Of a DNA stretch of 5,876 nucleotides, positions 1-5,854 are shown one piece after another. This DNA is from a virus (taxonomy: Duplodnaviria; Heunggongvirae; Uroviricota; Caudoviricetes). Made by a program: the position numbers and the translations under genes. The notes beneath the pieces are model-generated. The model had not been told where the DNA came from. It saw only the letters and a list, made by a program, of their open reading frames with translations, and did no database searches. The stretch's first letter is position 1. Each line of letters starts with the position of its first letter. The stretch lies in the IMG/VR virus record IMGVR_UViG_3300028481_000068. The stretch is one strand, 5' to 3'.

Positions 1-480
1 ATCCTGCTCCCACAATGGAGAGTTACGCACTCCGGCTTGCGCCATACTGATGGTAAGCTCACGGGGTTCTGCTTCTCCTTTAAGAACTGCTGACACAGTT
101 ACCGTCAGATTCGGTGATTTATCTGTTTTTCCGTTAACATTCGACCAGTCACCGCTCCAGCGATAATTCAGGCGTGTCGCTAGCAGGATGGAAGAGGATA
201 CGACCGCGTTTACCAACTGTGCTTCGTAGCCTAACGTTCCGTTTACCACATGCGTTTTCTGCGCCACGGCGAAAGGGTTCATTCCCCATTGTGCCGCCTG
301 CATGGTCACCGCCAGACAATCGGCAGGTTTGCCTTCAAGATGTTTCGGTACAGTCGCTTTGCTTTGTGACATCAACTCCGCGAAACGCACCAGTTGATTC
401 ATGCCCTCCGGGCTGAAGATTGCCGCAGCAGTACCTACAGTTGCGCTTGGTTGTGATGTGATTGCGATATCATTGCTCAT
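1..480 (-). CDS. RecT/Redbeta-family single-strand annealing protein, N-terminal 160 codons only (C-terminus lies beyond the window start)
   Basis: Minus-strand frame from ATG at 480-478 is open to position 1; it is absent from the ORF track only because it has no stop in the window. My translation: MSNDIAITSQPSATVGTAAAIFSPEGMNQLVRFAELMSQSKATVPKHLEGKPADCLAVTMQAAQWGMNPFAVAQKTHVVNGTLGYEAQLVN... The AAQWGMNP segment resembles the ANQYGLNP core of lambda Bet as I recall it (not searched). The start ATG overlaps the TGA stop of the upstream exonuclease gene (ATGA). Confidence 0.6.
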   Translation of the reverse strand, partial: MSNDIAITSQPSATVGTAAAIFSPEGMNQLVRFAELMSQSKATVPKHLEGKPADCLAVTMQAAQWGMNPFAVAQKTHVVNGTLGYEAQLVNAVVSSSILLATRLNYRWSGDWSNVNGKTDKSPNLTVTVSAVLKGEAEPRELTISMAQAGVRNSPLWEQD

Positions 481-1298
481 ACGTACATATCCTGTTTACG
501 TGCCCAGTCAGGGCGTTTAATAATTTCCACGCCGCCCCATTCATCATTGATGCGGCATTCGTGATAGGTATTCAGATCCCGGCGGAACAGAGCGTGCCCG
601 GCATCGACATCCGGCGCATCAAGCTCGAACACGCGTACCGGATACCGACCACAATCAATGCTTTCGCTCACGGCAAGAAAGAAAAAACCATGCGGCTGAC
701 CAGTAACCCTCATTGCGCCTTCGCGGTACATTGCGTCCTGCACGTGGTAGCGGAATTCCTCGATGTGGCGTGCAAAACGGTCCATATCTGCAACCTTTTT
801 CACGTCGACGATCACGTTGTGCTCGTTCAGCCATTTGTCTGGACGAATTCGGCACAACTCACCCGTCTCTTCATCGTTCCAGTACATTGATGCTTCGCAG
901 TAACCAGGTGCTTCCAACATCCAGCGTGCCGCCGGATGAGCCATTGCGCTATCACGCATCAGCTCCAGTTTCCGCCACTGCTCGGCATCAAGTACCGTAA
1001 TCCCCATATCCGCCACATCACGAAGAAATGCCTCTTCGTCAGCTTTACCTTGTTTCGTCCGACGATCGAATTTCGGTGAAACAATGAAGCGTTTGTCGAA
1101 CTCTCCAGGCTCCAGAAGCAGACAGTGCAATGCGGTTCCCATATCCAGTGCAGACTTTTTCTCTTCGTCTTCTGGTGCTGCCTGAACCCATTTAAGAAGC
1201 GCCGGATTCTTGGCAACCATGTCCAGTTGCGACTTACTCACGCCGTCACCGGCGTGGTAGTCTTCGTTGCTGATGTCGAAATAAATTCCCGGTTTCAT
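477..1298 (-). CDS. PD-(D/E)XK-family exonuclease (RecE C-terminal domain-like / exodeoxyribonuclease VIII-like), 273 aa
   Basis: ORF-track protein MKPGIYFDISNEDYHAG... contains RIRPD ... VIVDVKKV, which fits a PD-x(n)-(D/E)-x-K nuclease motif. SD GAGGGA lies 6 nt upstream of ATG 1298. It sits directly upstream of, and is translationally coupled to, the annealase gene, the usual exonuclease/annealase pairing. Family assignment is from memory. Confidence 0.7.
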   Translation of the reverse strand: MKPGIYFDISNEDYHAGDGVSKSQLDMVAKNPALLKWVQAAPEDEEKKSALDMGTALHCLLLEPGEFDKRFIVSPKFDRRTKQGKADEEAFLRDVADMGITVLDAEQWRKLELMRDSAMAHPAARWMLEAPGYCEASMYWNDEETGELCRIRPDKWLNEHNVIVDVKKVADMDRFARHIEEFRYHVQDAMYREGAMRVTGQPHGFFFLAVSESIDCGRYPVRVFELDAPDVDAGHALFRRDLNTYHECRINDEWGGVEIIKRPDWARKQDMYV

Positions 1299-1594
1299 GC
1301 CGCGTCCCTCTGTCCATCAAGCTGATCCGCAAGATCCCAGCGGGCGATAATTGCCATTGCCTCTCGCCGATAGGCATCCATCAGTTCTTCGAACTCAGGG
1401 CTGTCTTTAGCAGCCTCCAGTACTTCCTGACGAACGCCTTTGCCTGTTACAACGTCGAAAGTTGAGGACAGTTGATGAAGTCGGATACTCTCAATCAGTT
1501 CAACTTGTCGGTCATATAGCTGTTCTGACAGGCGGTAGTCCTTGTCGAATGCCAGCATGATTTTTTGAAGATTTTTCTGCTGATTAACGTTCAT
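1295..1594 (-). CDS. Hypothetical small protein, 99 aa, in the recombination operon
   Basis: ORF-track frame 1295..1609. I prefer the internal ATG at 1594 (protein MNVNQQKNLQKIM...) because GGAGGG lies 6 nt upstream of it. The TGA stop overlaps the exonuclease ATG (ATGA). No family recognised. Confidence 0.5.
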   Translation of the reverse strand: MNVNQQKNLQKIMLAFDKDYRLSEQLYDRQVELIESIRLHQLSSTFDVVTGKGVRQEVLEAAKDSPEFEELMDAYRREAMAIIARWDLADQLDGQRDAA

Positions 1595-1596
1595 TA

Positions 1597-1749
1597 TCAG
1601 CCCTCCCATATCTCGTTATCGTTGGCCACATCGCGAGCTTCTTTGCTGACGAAAGCCCACTTAATGCCTTCCTGTAAGGTGCGGAACTTCCAGCTCATGA
1701 ATCCGCATGCAGTAACGCAGTACCAACCGTTGATGATTTTCCACTGCAT
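1597..1749 (-). CDS. Hypothetical 50-aa protein, first ORF of the leftward early operon (not in the ORF track)
   Basis: Minus-strand ATG at 1749-1747 through TGA at 1599-1597. My translation: MQWKIINGWYCVTACGFMSWKFRTLQEGIKWAFVSKEARDVANDNEIWEG. GAGGT lies about 9 nt upstream. The stop is 2 nt before the next start (TGATAATG). It is the first ORF downstream of the predicted leftward promoter. Short, so coding status is uncertain. Confidence 0.35.
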   Translation of the reverse strand: MQWKIINGWYCVTACGFMSWKFRTLQEGIKWAFVSKEARDVANDNEIWEG

Positions 1750-1768: not shown

Positions 1769-1783
1769 TTACCGTTGAGGTAA
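1769..1783. promoter_or_regulatory. Operator-like dyad TTACC-GTTGA-GGTAA, abutting the -10 of the leftward early promoter
   Basis: Perfect 5+5 inverted-repeat half-sites with a 5-bp spacer. Member of an eight-copy family confined to intergenic regions. Confidence 0.6.
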
Positions 1784-1811
1784 TAATTATGCGTATATGG
1801 TTTGATGTCAA
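1783..1811 (-). promoter_or_regulatory. Putative leftward early promoter (pL-like): -35 TTGACA, 17-bp spacer, -10 AATTAT
   Basis: Minus-strand TTGACA at 1811-1806 and AATTAT at 1788-1783. The -10 overlaps the first base of operator 1769-1783, and a second operator lies 19 bp upstream of the -35. Hexamers were chosen by eye and the -10 is a weak match. Confidence 0.4.
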
Positions 1812-1830
1812 TAGATATGAGTTAAAAAAA

Positions 1831-1845
1831 TTACCCGTTAGGTAA
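1831..1845. promoter_or_regulatory. Operator-like dyad TTACC-CGTTA-GGTAA, upstream of the leftward promoter
   Basis: Perfect half-sites. Centre-to-centre distance to site 1769-1783 is 62 bp. Confidence 0.6.
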
Positions 1846-1902: not shown

Positions 1903-2487
1903 TTATTGTTTGTTTTTTTCGTTTTGGTTGATGACAAATTCAATGTAACTTTCGATCTTTGCTTTCTCGGTTTCGGGTAACAATGCGTAGCGCGAGCGAT
2001 CATAGTTGATGGTCGCAGGGTCGTGCGGGTGAATCAGTAATTCATAGCCGTGACGCCCGAATGCGGATGCAACATTCTCCAGGGTGGAAATGGAAACGCT
2101 GACCTCATTGTTTAACAGGCGGCTGATTGTCACCTGGGCGACGCCGGATGCGCGGTGTAGTTTTCCCTGCGTTGAAAGGTCGCGGCTTTCGCTCATCCAG
2201 CGTTCCAGGTTGTGAGCCGCCAGCTGACCAATGTCGCTTGGTCCGACAGGCTGAAAACCTTCCTGAGAAAGCGAGCGATCGATATCAAGCCAGTTACGGG
2301 GTTTATTGGCGGCAGCTTCAATTTTTCGCGCAACCTGGTCGCCGATAACCTTCTTGCCAAGAGCCCAGCGGTTTACCAGATTTGCCTGAGTTCCAAGTTT
2401 TTCTGCCATCCGCGTCTGAACACCATTGAATTCACGGTCGATCAAGTCGTTGAGATTTTGCCTGCGGACGTCCTGGATACTTTTCAT
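1903..2487 (-). CDS. Phage repressor-like DNA-binding protein with two XRE-type HTH segments and no recognisable LexA/S24-type autocleavage domain, 194 aa
   Basis: ORF-track protein. HTH-like segments QTRMAEKLGTQANLVNRW and GVAQVTISRLLNNEVSVSISTLENVASAF. I see no Ser/Lys peptidase-like C-terminal domain. It is divergent from the Cro-like gene, with shared operators in the 154-bp intergenic region. Confidence 0.7.
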   Translation of the reverse strand: MKSIQDVRRQNLNDLIDREFNGVQTRMAEKLGTQANLVNRWALGKKVIGDQVARKIEAAANKPRNWLDIDRSLSQEGFQPVGPSDIGQLAAHNLERWMSESRDLSTQGKLHRASGVAQVTISRLLNNEVSVSISTLENVASAFGRHGYELLIHPHDPATINYDRSRYALLPETEKAKIESYIEFVINQNEKNKQ

Positions 2488-2542
2488 TTTCTGGAAAATC
2501 GCCTCATATATGAATCAGTAGATGATTCAATTTAAAGCAATA

Positions 2543-2557
2543 TTACCCAACAGGTAA
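2543..2557. promoter_or_regulatory. Operator-like dyad TTACC-CAACA-GGTAA in the divergent immunity region
   Basis: Perfect half-sites, between the repressor start (2487) and the Cro-like start (2642). Confidence 0.6.
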
Positions 2558-2559
2558 AT

Positions 2560-2587: not shown

Positions 2588-2616
2588 TTGTTACCTTATG
2601 GGTGAATATTTATTAT
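2588..2616 (+). promoter_or_regulatory. Putative rightward early promoter (PR-like): -35 TTGTTA, 17-bp spacer, -10 TATTAT
   Basis: Hexamers at 2588-2593 and 2611-2616, by eye. An alternative pairing is TTGATT at 2581-2586 with GAATAT at 2604-2609. Drives the Cro-like gene. Confidence 0.35.
2591..2605. promoter_or_regulatory. Operator-like site TTACC-TTATG-GGTGA inside the rightward promoter
   Basis: 9 of 10 half-site positions match. Lies within the predicted spacer of the PR-like promoter. Confidence 0.5.
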
Positions 2617-2641: not shown

Positions 2642-2872
2642 ATGAGCGATAACGGACATTTCGATTTCAAAAAGCACTGGCTTGCACTTACTCCGGATGA
2701 GCGTGAAGCCTTCGCACAGGAAGCCGGAACGACGAGTCACTATATCCAGACTCACTTAACAGGTAAGCGCAAAATGCCAGGTAAGGTATTGATGAATGGG
2801 CTTTTTAAAGCCTGTAAAACAAGACAATGGCTGCGCTCAAAAGCAGAACTGGCATACTTCTTCTACTCATGA
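2642..2872 (+). CDS. Cro-like small HTH DNA-binding protein, 76 aa
   Basis: ORF-track protein MSDNGHFDFKKHWLALTPDEREAFAQEAGTTSHYIQTHLTGKRK... Divergent from the repressor across the operator region and followed by an intrinsic terminator. Called Cro-like from size, position and a putative HTH; family not verified. Confidence 0.55.
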   Translation: MSDNGHFDFKKHWLALTPDEREAFAQEAGTTSHYIQTHLTGKRKMPGKVLMNGLFKACKTRQWLRSKAELAYFFYS

Positions 2873-3022: not shown

Positions 3023-3223
3023 ATGGAAATCATTACACGTATTGATGCCGCAAAGCGCGGACTTAAACGCTACTACACCGGAAAACCATGTAAGCACGGA
3101 CATGACAGTGAACGCTGGGTTTACAACGGACACTGTGTTGAGTGCACCATGGAATCAAACCGTCGCATCAGGGCAGAGATTAAGCAGATCATGATTAATT
3201 CCTCCCCACAACATTCAAGCTGA
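3023..3223 (+). CDS. Small Cys/His-rich putative zinc-binding protein, 66 aa (cII-like position, function unknown)
   Basis: ATG 3023 with AGGG 6 nt upstream; I prefer this over the ORF-track TTG start at 2960. Protein MEIITRIDAAKRGLKRYYTGKPCKHGHDSERWVYNGHCVECTMESNRRIRAEIKQ... has a C-x-H-x-H ... C-x2-C arrangement. Confidence 0.5.
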   Translation: MEIITRIDAAKRGLKRYYTGKPCKHGHDSERWVYNGHCVECTMESNRRIRAEIKQIMINSSPQHSS

Positions 3224-3238
3224 TAGCGGAGATTAATC

Positions 3239-4054
3239 ATGAGCAGACATGCAACAGATTGGGCCTGGGAGACAGATCCAGGCAGCTCATCATTAAAGCT
3301 CATACTGCTCTCGATGGCTGACAGAGCCGATGAATATAACCTCTGCTACCCCAGCATAGAACGCCTCGTTAAAGACACTTGTCTGAATAAAAAAACCGTG
3401 CAGGCCGGACTTATATCGCTCATGAAAATGGGGCTTATTTCAGATACCGGAGAGAGAAAGGGAGCGACGAAAAGAGTGCGGGTTTTCTCTCTTAATATAA
3501 CCAAAAAAGGGAACATTAAAGGCAACCTAGAAGGACGTAATGAACCCGAAAACGGTAATGTTCCCGAAAACGGGAATATACCCAAAAACGGGATGTTGAA
3601 TGATCCCAAAAACGGGATGTTGAATGATCCCAAAAACGGGATCCAGAACCAGTCATATAACCAGTCATTTAACCAAGAGAGGGAGAGCAGGACAAAAACC
3701 GGGGATTCTGTGCCTCATGACCCCGGCGCAAACAACGCCGTGATGAATAACTTTGTTCCTCCTGGTGGGCCAGGGCAATTAGGCAAATTTGTCATGCATG
3801 AACAATGGCAGCCATCAGATGACTTTCTTCGGAAAAGCTCATTGCAGGGGATCTACCTGGACAGTATGCCAACGGCACAGGAACTTGCAGAGTTCAGAAT
3901 TTACTGGATGGCTGAGGGTAAGGCATACCATCAGGCACAGTGGGAGCAGAAGCTGGCAAGGCGGCTGCAGATTAGCAGACAGAAGCAATCAACATTACCT
4001 GATAACAACGTTCCGCACTGGAACAGCCCTGAAGCATGGGAGGATTTCTTGTGA
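3239..4054 (+). CDS. Replication initiator, lambda O-like: N-terminal HTH origin-binding domain, repetitive linker, C-terminal domain of the DnaT/O type; 271 aa
   Basis: ORF-track protein. SD GGAG lies 7 nt upstream of the ATG. The linker NGNVPENGNIPKNGMLNDPKNGMLNDPKNG is encoded by the iteron array, as with ori inside lambda O. It lies immediately upstream of, and overlaps, the P-like gene. Domain names are from memory. Confidence 0.75.
   Translation: MSRHATDWAWETDPGSSSLKLILLSMADRADEYNLCYPSIERLVKDTCLNKKTVQAGLISLMKMGLISDTGERKGATKRVRVFSLNITKKGNIKGNLEGRNEPENGNVPENGNIPKNGMLNDPKNGMLNDPKNGIQNQSYNQSFNQERESRTKTGDSVPHDPGANNAVMNNFVPPGGPGQLGKFVMHEQWQPSDDFLRKSSLQGIYLDSMPTAQELAEFRIYWMAEGKAYHQAQWEQKLARRLQISRQKQSTLPDNNVPHWNSPEAWEDFL
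3545..3645. repeat. Iteron array: five direct repeats of core CCC(G/A)AAAACGG(G/T)A at 18-, 18-, 24- and 24-bp spacing; putative origin of replication
   Basis: Copies start at 3545, 3563, 3581, 3605 and 3629. Copies 3 and 4 are identical over 24 bp. Each core carries a CCCG/CGGG dyad around an A-tract. Followed by the tandem AACCAGTCAT(A/T)T x2 (3647-3670). Located inside the O-like coding sequence. Confidence 0.75.
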
Positions 4055-4836
4055 ACAACGTTTTTACCGCGATACAAAACCGTGACGGAGAAGCCCTTTC
4101 TCGCATGTCAGGTTATGAGCATCAGTACACTAACAATGACAACGTGGTGAACATGTCAGCAGAGAGGCTTGTTGATGCCCTTTTCAAACAGTTGAAACAA
4201 CTGTTTCCGGCGGCAGTGGTAACCAACCTGAAGACGCCAGAGCAGGAAGTTGCTGCAAAACAGCAGTGGATTGCTGCGTTTGCCGAAGGGGGGATCCGAA
4301 CCCGTGAACAGGTTTCTGCTGGTATGCGCCACGCCCGCGCCAGTGAATCTCCGTTCTGGCCGTCGCCAGGGCAATTTATCAAGTGGTGCAAAGACAGCAA
4401 GATGGTTCTTGGCGTCACCATTGACGATGTGATGGCGGAGTTTCACCGGTACAGCAAGGAAAAAAGTTTATATCCTGGTGGTCCCGAAAGATTCCCGTGG
4501 CGGCATCCGGTTATGTACTGGGTCGTATGTGATACCCGCCGTGCAATGTATCAGCGCCAGCTTAGCGAGATTGAGGTTGAGAAACACGCGCGCAGGATGC
4601 TCGATGATTGGGCGAAAAAGGTGGCTTCCGGACAGCAGATACCCGATCCGGTGATCAGCATACAGGCAAAGCCAGAGCCCATGAGTACACCTCCGGACAC
4701 AGGGAGAGACGTTTACCATCCACCAGGGCGAAGTTTCGGGTGTATGCCTAACGCCGCCACCCTGGGGGGAATAACACCGGCGCAGTGGCTGATGGAGGAA
4801 TACAGGCGGGGAAAGGCGTCAGGATTTATCAAGTAA
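4051..4836 (+). CDS. Replication protein P-like (replicative helicase loader), 261 aa
   Basis: The segment AAKQQWIAAFAEGGIRTREQVSAGMRHARASESPFWPSPGQFIKWCKD matches my recollection of lambda P (...RRQWVLAFRENGITTMEQVNAGMRVARRQNRPFLPSPGQFVAWCRE...). I chose the GTG start at 4051: GGGAGGA lies 6 nt upstream and it overlaps the O-like stop (GTGA). The ORF-track ATG at 4036 is an alternative. Confidence 0.85.
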   Translation: MNNVFTAIQNRDGEALSRMSGYEHQYTNNDNVVNMSAERLVDALFKQLKQLFPAAVVTNLKTPEQEVAAKQQWIAAFAEGGIRTREQVSAGMRHARASESPFWPSPGQFIKWCKDSKMVLGVTIDDVMAEFHRYSKEKSLYPGGPERFPWRHPVMYWVVCDTRRAMYQRQLSEIEVEKHARRMLDDWAKKVASGQQIPDPVISIQAKPEPMSTPPDTGRDVYHPPGRSFGCMPNAATLGGITPAQWLMEEYRRGKASGFIK

Positions 4837-4841
4837 TACCA

Positions 4842-4861
4842 GCGCGATAGCGCATTTTTTT
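4842..4861 (+). terminator. Possible weak intrinsic terminator after the P-like gene
   Basis: GCGC-GATA-GCGC, only a 4-bp stem, followed by a run of seven T (4855-4861). Confidence 0.3.
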
Positions 4862-4873
4862 ACGTCTCGATAA

Positions 4874-4888
4874 TTACCTGTTGGGTAA
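4874..4888. promoter_or_regulatory. Operator-like dyad TTACC-TGTTG-GGTAA, upstream of the third promoter
   Basis: Perfect half-sites, 19 bp upstream of the -35 TTGATT. Confidence 0.6.
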
Positions 4889-4907
4889 TAAAGTGTTCTA
4901 AAATCTA

Positions 4908-4936
4908 TTGATTTCGTGTCTTATGTGGTTTTTAAT
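4908..4936 (+). promoter_or_regulatory. Putative rightward promoter downstream of the replication module: -35 TTGATT, 17-bp spacer, -10 TTTAAT
   Basis: Hexamers at 4908-4913 and 4931-4936, flanked by operator sites at 4874-4888 and 4936-4950. The spacing is identical to the pL-like module (operator, 19 bp, -35, 17 bp, -10 overlapping the second operator by 1 nt). Confidence 0.45.
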
Positions 4937-4950
4937 TACCTCAGGGGTAA
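4936..4950. promoter_or_regulatory. Operator-like dyad TTACC-TCAGG-GGTAA overlapping the -10 and the 5' leader of ORF 4954
   Basis: Perfect half-sites, ending 3 nt before ATG 4954. Confidence 0.6.
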
Positions 4951-4953
4951 ATC

Positions 4954-5298
4954 ATGAGAAAACAGATACAGGCTCTTGGTCGACTCAAAACAGGCCAGAT
5001 GAACAAAACAGAATCTGCGTATTGCCAGCACCTTGAGCTGCGTAAACGTGCAGGAGAAATCGCCTGGTATCGATTCGAGGGTATCAAGCTGCGGTTAGCT
5101 GACAACACGTTCTATACGCCCGATTTTGCTGTGATGCTCGCCACCGGCGAGATGGAACTGCACGAAGTGAAAGGTTTCTGGACCGACGACGCCAGGGTGA
5201 AAACCAAAGTCGCTGCAGATCAGTATCCGTTCAGAATCATCGGGGTAACTGTTAAGCCAAAGAAAGCAGGTGGTGGCTGGAACATCGAAGAGTTCTGA
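4954..5298 (+). CDS. Small PD-(D/E)XK-fold nuclease-like phage protein, 114 aa (possibly DUF1064-type)
   Basis: ORF-track protein with FYTPDFAV ... MELHEVKG, which fits a PD ... E-x-K motif. First gene downstream of the operator-flanked promoter. DUF1064 naming is from memory and unverified. Confidence 0.6.
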   Translation: MRKQIQALGRLKTGQMNKTESAYCQHLELRKRAGEIAWYRFEGIKLRLADNTFYTPDFAVMLATGEMELHEVKGFWTDDARVKTKVAADQYPFRIIGVTVKPKKAGGGWNIEEF

Positions 5299-5359: not shown

Positions 5360-5854
5360 ATGGAAAGTAATATCAAAGGGTTAGTTTCCGCCGGGCATGA
5401 GATGGCTTCGGAACTGAAAGCAGAATGTGGTGCCGTTGATATGCGCAGTGTGGCAAAGCTGATCAGCGATTTGGCAACGCAACTGGAAGTGCAACTGGTG
5501 CGTGCTAATGCGCTGGCCGAAGACCAACAGAAAGCGATTGAGTCAATTAAGCAGGCTGATGCGGCTGTTAAGTTGGCACACGAGAAGTTTTCAGCGCTGG
5601 CGGCGGAGAATGCAAAGCTGAAGAAGTTCTGCAAAGACGCTGCATTCGATGCCGATTACGAAGCAGAGCTAGGTATGGAGAGAGGTGGATTCAGTGATGC
5701 ACTTAACGAAATCAAAACCCCGGCCACCGACGCATTCCTGGCTGAAGTGCGGGCGCAGGGGGTAGAGATGTTTGCTGACCATCTGTTGTGCCCAGACCTT
5801 GATGACACTATCCGTGACTTTGCTGCCCAGCTTCGCAAAGGAGGCAACCAGTGA
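5360..5854 (+). CDS. Hypothetical coiled-coil phage protein, 164 aa
   Basis: ORF-track protein. SD GAGGG lies 5 nt upstream of the ATG. Ala/Glu/Lys-rich central region (ALAEDQQKAIESIKQADAAVKLAHEKFSALAAENAKLKK) suggests a coiled coil. No family recognised. Confidence 0.5.
   Translation: MESNIKGLVSAGHEMASELKAECGAVDMRSVAKLISDLATQLEVQLVRANALAEDQQKAIESIKQADAAVKLAHEKFSALAAENAKLKKFCKDAAFDADYEAELGMERGGFSDALNEIKTPATDAFLAEVRAQGVEMFADHLLCPDLDDTIRDFAAQLRKGGNQ

Follow-up and report, generated by a model that had tools for sequence, protein, structure and literature searches.

Background

How does a temperate phage transcribe the genes behind its replication genes, and is this transcription switched off directly by the phage repressor? 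This question is raised by positions 4837-4953 of a 5,876-nucleotide viral sequence (IMG/VR record IMGVR_UViG_3300028481_000068, of which the whole stretch is further called the window), lying between a lambda-P-like gene and a gene encoding a DUF1064 protein. The sequence represents the early region of a temperate podophage, a Uetakevirus (epsilon15-like), with 96-98% identity to PAS61, phiv142-3, phiV10 and other Uetakevirus phages; of 5,426 complete E. coli genomes, 531 have a match to its segment 4700-5100. A first-pass annotation, made from the sequence alone, proposed a separate promoter, flanked by two operators of the phage repressor Rep and built like the leftward early promoter (PL), for the gene that follows the P-like gene. 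By combining a direct reading of the sequence with motif statistics and a comparison across relatives, we come to the conclusion that 4837-4953 is likely a Rep-repressed promoter cassette for an operon of junction-resolvase and ea-like genes, used family-wide in epsilon15-like phages. The evidence is mainly comparative: the operator pair is found in 48 of 51 Rep-bearing loci and persists between non-homologous flanking genes, which supports a directly repressed promoter of PL design at this site.

A promoter cassette built like PL

The palindrome TTACC-N5-GGTAA occurs, with at most one mismatch, seven times in the window where 0.13 copies are expected, and none of 200 shuffles reached seven. 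The centres of these copies lie at 1776 and 1838 (PL), 2550 and 2598 (the right operators, OR), 2935 (after the terminator of the cro-like gene), and 4881 and 4943, with perfect copies starting at 1769, 1831, 2543, 4874 and 4936. The last two of these, further called O1 and O2, are thus the same palindrome as the left (OL) and right operator sites that flank rep, and the cognate repressor gene is part of the same element. Read on the plus strand, O1 (TTACCTGTTGGGTAA) is followed by 19 bp, the -35 hexamer TTGATT, a 17-bp spacer and the -10 hexamer TTTAAT, the final T of which is the first base of O2 (TTACCTCAGGGGTAA), and the ATG of the next gene follows at 4954 (Table 1). PL, on the minus strand, shows the same order, its AATTAT overlapping operator 1783-1769 by one nucleotide and the cassette being preceded by the rep terminator (1882-1863). 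This common layout and the 62 bp between the operator centres of each cassette had been described in the first-pass annotation and agree with our reading; the word given there as shared at the junction of -10 and operator, AATTACCTCA, does not, being found only at 4934-4943, with TATTACCTCA in PL and the 9-mer ATTACCTCA as the true common word.

The similarity extends into the 47-bp interiors of both cassettes, where 24 of 47 positions are identical in register, compared with 7 to 18 when the interiors are slid 1-10 bases either way, and such a 24-position match was reached by 153 of 100,000 shuffles (0.15%). The in-register run common to both interiors, ATCTATTGA, was equalled in 66 of 100,000 shuffles. 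The 62 bp correspond to about 5.9 helical turns, so that O1 and O2, which enclose the core promoter, are in helical phase, and the AT-rich stretch between O1 and the -35 hexamer appears to resemble an UP element. That the locus would be a chance arrangement of AT-rich sequence, devoid of any regulatory function, is highly implausible: a weak -10 hexamer and a weak hairpin are all that speaks for it, and it is contradicted by the excess of operator motifs, by the in-register similarity and by the conservation data presented below.

Conservation of the cassette in relatives

The cassette is kept in at least nine genera and was seen in every relative examined, in the order hairpin with a run of seven T residues (T7), operator, AT-rich stretch, CTATTGA, 17-bp spacer, AT-rich -10 and an operator holding the Shine-Dalgarno sequence. 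Six annotated relatives (TL-2011b, ZX5, Tyrion, SPN1S, BUCT554 and Kp4865-1) possess two perfect operators 62 bp apart directly after the replication genes. The surroundings vary: TL-2011b and ZX5 align to the window in two pieces covering 71-73%, SPN1S and epsilon15 have a different replication gene set before the cassette, and Tyrion, epsilon15 and others carry a RuvC-type resolvase gene instead of DUF1064 behind it. The product of the gene behind the cassette (4954-5298 in the window, 6359-6823 in locus L003 and 7988-8452 in locus L141) is in some cases the DUF1064 protein (phrog_190) and in others a RuvC-type resolvase unrelated to it, which looks like non-orthologous replacement of the junction resolvase behind one regulatory cassette.

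To avoid circularity, eight prophages from eight species (of Superficieibacter, Erwinia, Pseudocitrobacter, Pseudescherichia, Klebsiella, Scandinavium and, twice, Citrobacter) were collected via the Rep protein alone. All eight have an operator pair at the equivalent place, one at 18 bp and seven at 61-62 bp, so that the architecture, which the first-pass annotation had suggested comparing in related prophages, recurs also where the motif played no part in the selection. From all loci collected, 51 unique Rep-bearing regions extend far enough rightward to be scored, and 48 of these have the pair, which lies 1.6-3.5 kb away from where rep starts and is spaced by 62 bp in 44 loci, by 61 bp in one and by 18 bp in three. 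The remaining three, IMG/VR loci L039, L096 and L011, have no operator pair right of rep and look either rearranged or equipped with other replication modules; in L039 the next site is the counterpart of the one that phiV10 has before its tail-fibre gene, pointing to a deletion or rearrangement.

When 11 diverse modules are aligned, the positions held constant are the half-sites of both operators, TATTGA, the ATG, the hairpin with T7 and, ahead of the second operator, the pattern T..GG.T.T.AA, while the central N5 of both operators is free to vary, as are many positions of the spacer. Conserved half-sites around a free central spacer are also found in the relatives that were collected independently of the motif. 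The TTGA of the -35 hexamer is invariant in 79 unique modules, TTGA not having been a selection criterion, and nearly all OL and post-replication modules keep their operators 61-63 bp apart. Among the 11 aligned relatives, eight have the ATG 3 nt past O2 and the other three 2-5 nt past it.

Promoter strength and competing readings

Compared with the sigma-70 consensus, the predicted promoter matches 4/6 positions in TTGATT and 5/6 in TTTAAT at 17-bp spacing, but has T at -11. A simple position-weight matrix, approximate only, with base frequencies modelled on published sigma-70 compilations, ranks it fifth among 11,752 window positions, behind PL, PR, a candidate at 2960 (discussed below) and one other site. 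Most relatives have TAAATT at 18-bp spacing, and with this -10 (A at -11) the promoter ranks first to third in the same scan, the window and Tyrion carrying the weaker TTTAAT/TTAATT form.

Several observations weigh against an active promoter at this position. A consensus promoter scan of the window finds PL and PR and misses the third promoter because TTTAAT has T, not A, at hexamer position 2, and no -10 register at 16-19 bp spacing here combines A at position 2 with T at position 6; the promoter may therefore be weak or require a helper. A start about 7 nt past the -10 is predicted at A4943 or G4944, leaving a leader of only about 10-11 nt that opens with the Shine-Dalgarno sequence within O2, and the spacer word TTATGTGGTT, although conserved, is left unaccounted for. 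The stem of the upstream hairpin counts only 4 bp, and read-through from the rightward early promoter (PR) may render a separate promoter partly redundant. The IMG/VR loci were gathered by the operator pattern itself, which makes operator conservation there partly circular and is countered by the Rep-ascertained sets. Finally, the literature searched contained no transcription-start, reporter or footprint evidence for any family member.

Other elements were sought in the cassette and rejected. Read as a -10, GATAAT at 4869-4874, abutting O1, has no -35 and is not conserved; TATGGT/TGTGGT as a -10 would leave a spacer of just 10 bp; and the conserved TGTGG is off register by 2 nt for an extended -10 (TGn). 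A minus-strand promoter inside the cassette has unconvincing hexamers and would run antisense into the P-like gene, and a LexA box over O1 is a poor match that depends on the variable N5.

The poor -10 could also mean that the operators are true Rep sites which act mainly as a roadblock where the replication operon ends, or as auxiliary sites raising the local Rep concentration or looping to OR and OL, with the promoter as a relic of a duplicated PL. Rep sites are indeed scattered genome-wide, including single ones without an obvious promoter, and the in-register similarity of the two cassettes fits a duplication. O1 is also identical to an OR operator: O1 with two flanking bases (4874-4890) is the exact reverse complement of 2541-2557 over 17 nt, the non-palindromic centre included, at least one base differing between these two operators in relatives. 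A relic would be expected to degenerate. In at least nine genera, however, the neighbouring positions vary while CTATTGA, the 17-bp spacer, the 19-bp distance and the AT-rich -10 have been retained, and with PR already repressed in the lysogen there would be little to block. Moreover, the 18-bp variant rebuilds a different complete promoter around its operators. In the Pseudescherichia vulneris prophage with this variant (L130, 7320-7428, minus strand) the interior promoter is gone and TTGCAA-17-AATTAT straddles the first operator, in such a way that one operator lies in the promoter spacer and the other directly after the -10, which abuts the second operator exactly as in PL. As this variant is still a predicted promoter, the site would therefore always hold an operator-wrapped promoter, and we regard the roadblock or relic explanation as improbable.

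The hairpin behind the P-like gene

The first-pass annotation also mentioned a possible terminator after the P-like gene. A hairpin is indeed present there, starting 6 nt past the stop codon, and its pattern GCGC-N4-GCGC-A-T7-A is invariant in 11 relatives; in the phiV10 RefSeq record it is annotated as a putative rho-independent terminator, the sole annotation in that region. Formally, an intrinsic terminator calls for five or more base pairs in a G+C-rich stem, directly followed by a U tract. The hairpin falls short of this, with a U7 after one A but a stem of 4 bp, which is below the 5-pair threshold of the terminator scan, and it went unreported in that scan. Its energy of -8.4 kcal/mol, which counts outer pairs with the U tract, compares with -15 for the terminator of the cro-like gene and -20.7 for that of rep, both of which have 8-bp stems. 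The hairpin probably acts as an attenuator or as a terminator of low strength. A reading as boxB- or nut-like RNA was rejected, the loops varying without a GNRA pattern and the stem never covarying, and Rfam gave no match within the window at E-values up to 1.

The Rep repressor and its link to the operators

The presumed binder of the operators is encoded in the window. It is a full-length homologue of Rep of Salmonella phage SPC32H (PDB 5D50, E-value 4e-42, residues 1-190), with about 43% identity. PDB entries 5D4Z and 5D50 belong to the SPC32H Rep/Ant lysis-lysogeny switch (Kim & Ryu 2013; Kim et al. 2016). Later papers describe SPC32H Rep as a tetramer on palindromic sites in which the DNA-binding pairs come from different dimers, with a tetramerisation domain at the C-terminus, of a kind connected with DNA looping, and which is freed by the antirepressor Ant (PMC9638917; PMC9986798); its repression mechanism 'has not been extensively characterized' according to a 2023 paper (PMC9986798). 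A Rep tetramer with two reading heads and two operators six turns apart suggest that one tetramer may bridge O1 and O2.

The composition of the operators offers a further link. The AT content of the central N5 of O1 tracks the immunity type, being 4.57/5 where Rep is SPN1S-like (4.64 in OL/OR) and 3.42 where it is phiV10-like (2.97 in OL/OR), in a sample that is not phylogenetically independent and thus supportive only. In a search for relatives with a heteroimmune Rep that reads other half-sites, all relatives found keep TTACC/GGTAA, which leaves only this weaker N5 signal. A candidate rep promoter, TTTACC-18-TAAATT (2529-2558, minus strand), overlaps operator 2543-2557; if true, it would make Rep autoregulatory.

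Dispersed operators and a second palindrome

The Rep sites are not confined to the immunity region. Operator-like sites number 14 in the whole phiV10 genome, where 0.66 would be expected, and each lies within or beside an intergenic region; operators are thus found at several transcription units beyond the immunity region. Apart from OL, OR, the post-cro site and the pair O1/O2, phiV10 has two sites 18 bp apart where terS begins, of which the operator contains the Shine-Dalgarno sequence as O2 does, and sites before gp06, near a Bro-type antirepressor gene, before the tail-fibre gene, between oac and the lysis genes, and directly before int (TTACCTTAAAGGTAT). Among the eight Rep-ascertained prophages, the site before int recurs in six and the terS-proximal pair in seven. 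Epsilon15 has 15 motif sites, seven of which are annotated.

Within the window, a strong terminator after the cro-like gene (2894-2913) is followed by an operator-like site, GTACCTCAAAGGTAA (2928-2942), and by a candidate promoter TTGATC-17-CAAAAT from 2960, which has the third-best promoter score in the window. The start predicted for the 2960 promoter follows this operator-like site at a distance of about 60 bp, and a partner operator at +1 is absent. The arrangement suggests that the replication genes, too, have their own Rep-linked promoter, and the cassette at 4837-4953 may then be the fourth in the window. The proposal of a third immunity-controlled unit consequently holds as far as the operator-flanked cassette itself is concerned, but its count is too low, given this candidate and at least seven further operator-like sites that phiV10 has outside the window.

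A second palindrome, A(A/T)CCA-N4-(T/C)GGTT, was observed as AACCAAATCTGGTT at 2948-2961, 6 nt past the post-cro operator-like site. In 10 of 14 loci it lies at much the same place, +448 to +474 relative to the start of rep, and in phiV10 it recurs before lysis, head and tail-fibre genes. The spacer of PL holds its left half and that of the third promoter its right half, in the same register. This raises the possibility that the post-replication promoter, while Rep-repressed, also needs or is controlled by a second phage factor reading T(G/A)TGG(T/A)T, which would make it a 'middle' rather than an immediate-early unit. The family-wide conservation of the spacer word in this promoter would then be explained, as would the full palindromes in other phiV10 intergenic regions and the one fixed after the cro-like gene. 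The -10 hexamer without A at -11 would fit as well, since activator-dependent promoters often lack this A. Yet the promoter has a half-site only, the genome-wide excess is modest (35 copies against 17.7 expected at up to 2 mismatches), and the position of the palindrome relative to the promoter hexamers differs between sites. On balance we consider such a second factor unlikely, and a promoter controlled by Rep remains our preferred reading.

A model for regulation of the operon

According to the model that we propose, transcription arriving from the replication genes would be ended or attenuated at the weak hairpin with its U7, and a sigma-70 promoter (TTGATT-17-TTTAAT with the AT-rich stretch upstream) would restart it at about 4943. 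The predicted transcript is an operon of roughly 4 kb running from the resolvase (DUF1064 here), in complete relatives, through ea-like genes to a small regulator before the terminase genes; in phiV10, the operon extends over about 4 kb to the small regulator (phrog_536) and a strong terminator just before terS. In the lysogen, Rep would occupy both operators, the site at +1 blocking RNA polymerase and the site at -62 covering the UP-like stretch and stabilising binding from the same helical face, possibly by bridging. When an antirepressor strips Rep from the DNA, the unit would come on.

More speculatively, and with rather more doubt than trust on our part, the whole early region may follow one principle. 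Epsilon15-like phages would do without lambda-style antitermination and use short, terminator-insulated units, each shut by the same tetrameric Rep. The PL and post-replication cassettes would be two copies of a portable terminator-operator-promoter-operator unit, in which one tetramer clamps the core promoter of about 47 bp in a tight micro-loop. A second factor on AACCA-N4-TGGTT might add timing at the post-cro, structural and lysis promoters, with a half-site left in both clamped promoters.

The cassette provides a concrete promoter-level target for the unusual Rep tetramer with its two DNA-reading pairs, and the exact 62-bp pairs around two promoters predict bridging by a single tetramer and binding that is sensitive to helical phase. 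As epsilon15-like phages are common prophages of E. coli and Salmonella, phiV10 and its relatives being O-antigen modifiers, knowing the Rep-controlled units would improve the prediction of which prophage genes are silent and which are expressed in lysogens. The cassette could also be put to use as a promoter part that is compact, tightly repressed and induced by the antirepressor.

Gene content of the window

The main features discussed are listed in Table 1. The DUF1064 protein is the first gene product of the proposed unit and, from its similarity to phrog_190, probably a Holliday-junction resolvase. Within the gene of the DnaT-domain initiator, at 3493-3645, five to six direct repeats of 18-24 bp with core CCC(G/A)AAAACGGGA were noticed, which are probably origin iterons, as in lambda O.

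Table 1. Positions of regulatory elements and genes in the window and of related sites in phiV10
Feature	Position	Strand	Remarks
O1, upstream predicted Rep operator TTACCTGTTGGGTAA	4874-4888		perfect motif; centre about -62 from predicted start
AT-rich stretch, O1 to -35	4889-4907	+	19 bp; family consensus tAAAATaT (79 unique modules and 11-module alignment)
-35 TTGATT	4908-4913	+	inside invariant word CTATTGA; same register as PL TTGACA
Spacer word TTATGTGGTT	4921-4930	+	conserved; family consensus T(G/A)TGG(T/A)T; half of palindrome AACCA-N4-TGGTT
-10 TTTAAT	4931-4936	+	17-bp spacing; 5/6 positions match; T at position 2
O2, downstream predicted Rep operator TTACCTCAGGGGTAA	4936-4950		centre near predicted start (about 4943); holds Shine-Dalgarno AGGGG 4943-4947
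Hairpin GCGC-GATA-GCGC	4842-4853	+	followed by A, then T7 at 4855-4861; begins 6 nt past P-like stop codon
PL cassette	1769-1845	-	operator 1845-1831, 19 bp, TTGACA 1811-1806, 17 bp, AATTAT 1788-1783
OR operators between rep and cro-like gene	2543-2557; 2560-2574; 2591-2605		perfect; 2 mismatches (centre 2567); 1 mismatch
PR, TTGTTA-17-TATTAT	2588-2616		
RecT	to 480	-	
RecE-like nuclease	477-1298	-	
Two small open reading frames	1295-1749	-	
Rep repressor	1903-2487	-	presumed binder of operators; Pfam HTH_3; PDB 5D50 homologue
cro-like gene	2642-2872	+	
66-residue open reading frame	3023-3223	+	
Replication initiator with DnaT domain	3239-4054	+	
Lambda-P-like protein	about 4052-4836	+	
DUF1064 protein	4954-5298	+	first gene of unit; Pfam PF06356; phrog_190 'Holliday junction resolvase', E-value 7e-43
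ea-like protein	5360-5854	+	
Operator-like sites, phiV10	87-119; 3252-3266; 20497-20511; 20877-20891; 24692-24706; 26870-26884		
Second palindrome, phiV10	24736-24749; 33132-33145; 3305-3318; 20918-20931		recurs before lysis, head and tail-fibre genes

Comparison with known systems

The principle is not new, as both dispersed operators and flanking operator pairs are known, and a Rep site after the replication genes is itself prior, predicted knowledge. The epsilon15 RefSeq record (NC_004775.2) lists seven predicted 'protein_bind: repressor' sites with the motif ATTACC-N5-GGTAAT. One of these (35906-35922, between the replication initiation and resolvase genes) is the homologue of O1, and others lie in the OL region and before terS, gp3 and the tail-fibre gene, matching the dispersal in phiV10. 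In contrast, the O2 partner (35969-35983), the OR sites and the promoters are unannotated in that record, and the paired 62-bp layout shared with PL is not mentioned. For ZX5, the paper gives only four unnamed predicted promoters. Neither these records nor the literature searched, outside which the original SPC32H papers fell, described that the operators form a pair around a promoter in the manner of PL, that 62 bp is their near-universal spacing, or that this layout persists between non-homologous flanks.

With P1 C1, N15 CB and the stoperators of L5 gp71, the phages studied here have in common that one repressor has sites at many transcription units. L5 stoperators are asymmetric, orientation-dependent and situated inside transcribed regions, and P1 operators are asymmetric 17-mers, whereas the sites here are palindromic and either intergenic or promoter-proximal, unlike stoperators of the mycobacteriophage type, and the proteins are unrelated. 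A parallel in geometry is offered by gal OE/OI, lac O1/O3 and deo, promoters repressed through a loop between two operators. Here, too, the two operators are on the same helical face, the first ahead of the -35 and the second at the transcription start, and Rep is reported to be tetrameric; the 62 bp are a far shorter separation than in those systems, and looping by Rep is hypothetical.

In lambda, CI and Cro act at OL and OR, and the delayed-early genes are reached by N antitermination. The comparison with lambda drawn in the first-pass annotation is justified for the gene order, with early promoters diverging next to the repressor gene, a cro-like gene as the first one rightward, and a nin-like region with a junction resolvase behind the O/P-like genes, but it is an analogy only, this being a podophage with an antirepressor-inactivated repressor. 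Unlike the adjacent operator triplets of lambda, the operator pairs here stand 62 bp apart and bracket a promoter. A terminator comes after the cro-like gene and a probable, weak one after the P-like gene, each with an operator-linked promoter behind it. Also unlike lambda, no N-like gene was recognised, and the window Rep lacks a RecA-cleavable domain. Among the nearest known systems is also the Rep/Ant switch of SPC32H, whose repressor, in spite of an identity of about 43%, is homologous over its full length to the Rep of the window, and SPN1S, which aligns like SPC32H (with the same query stretch and identity), has the same cassette.

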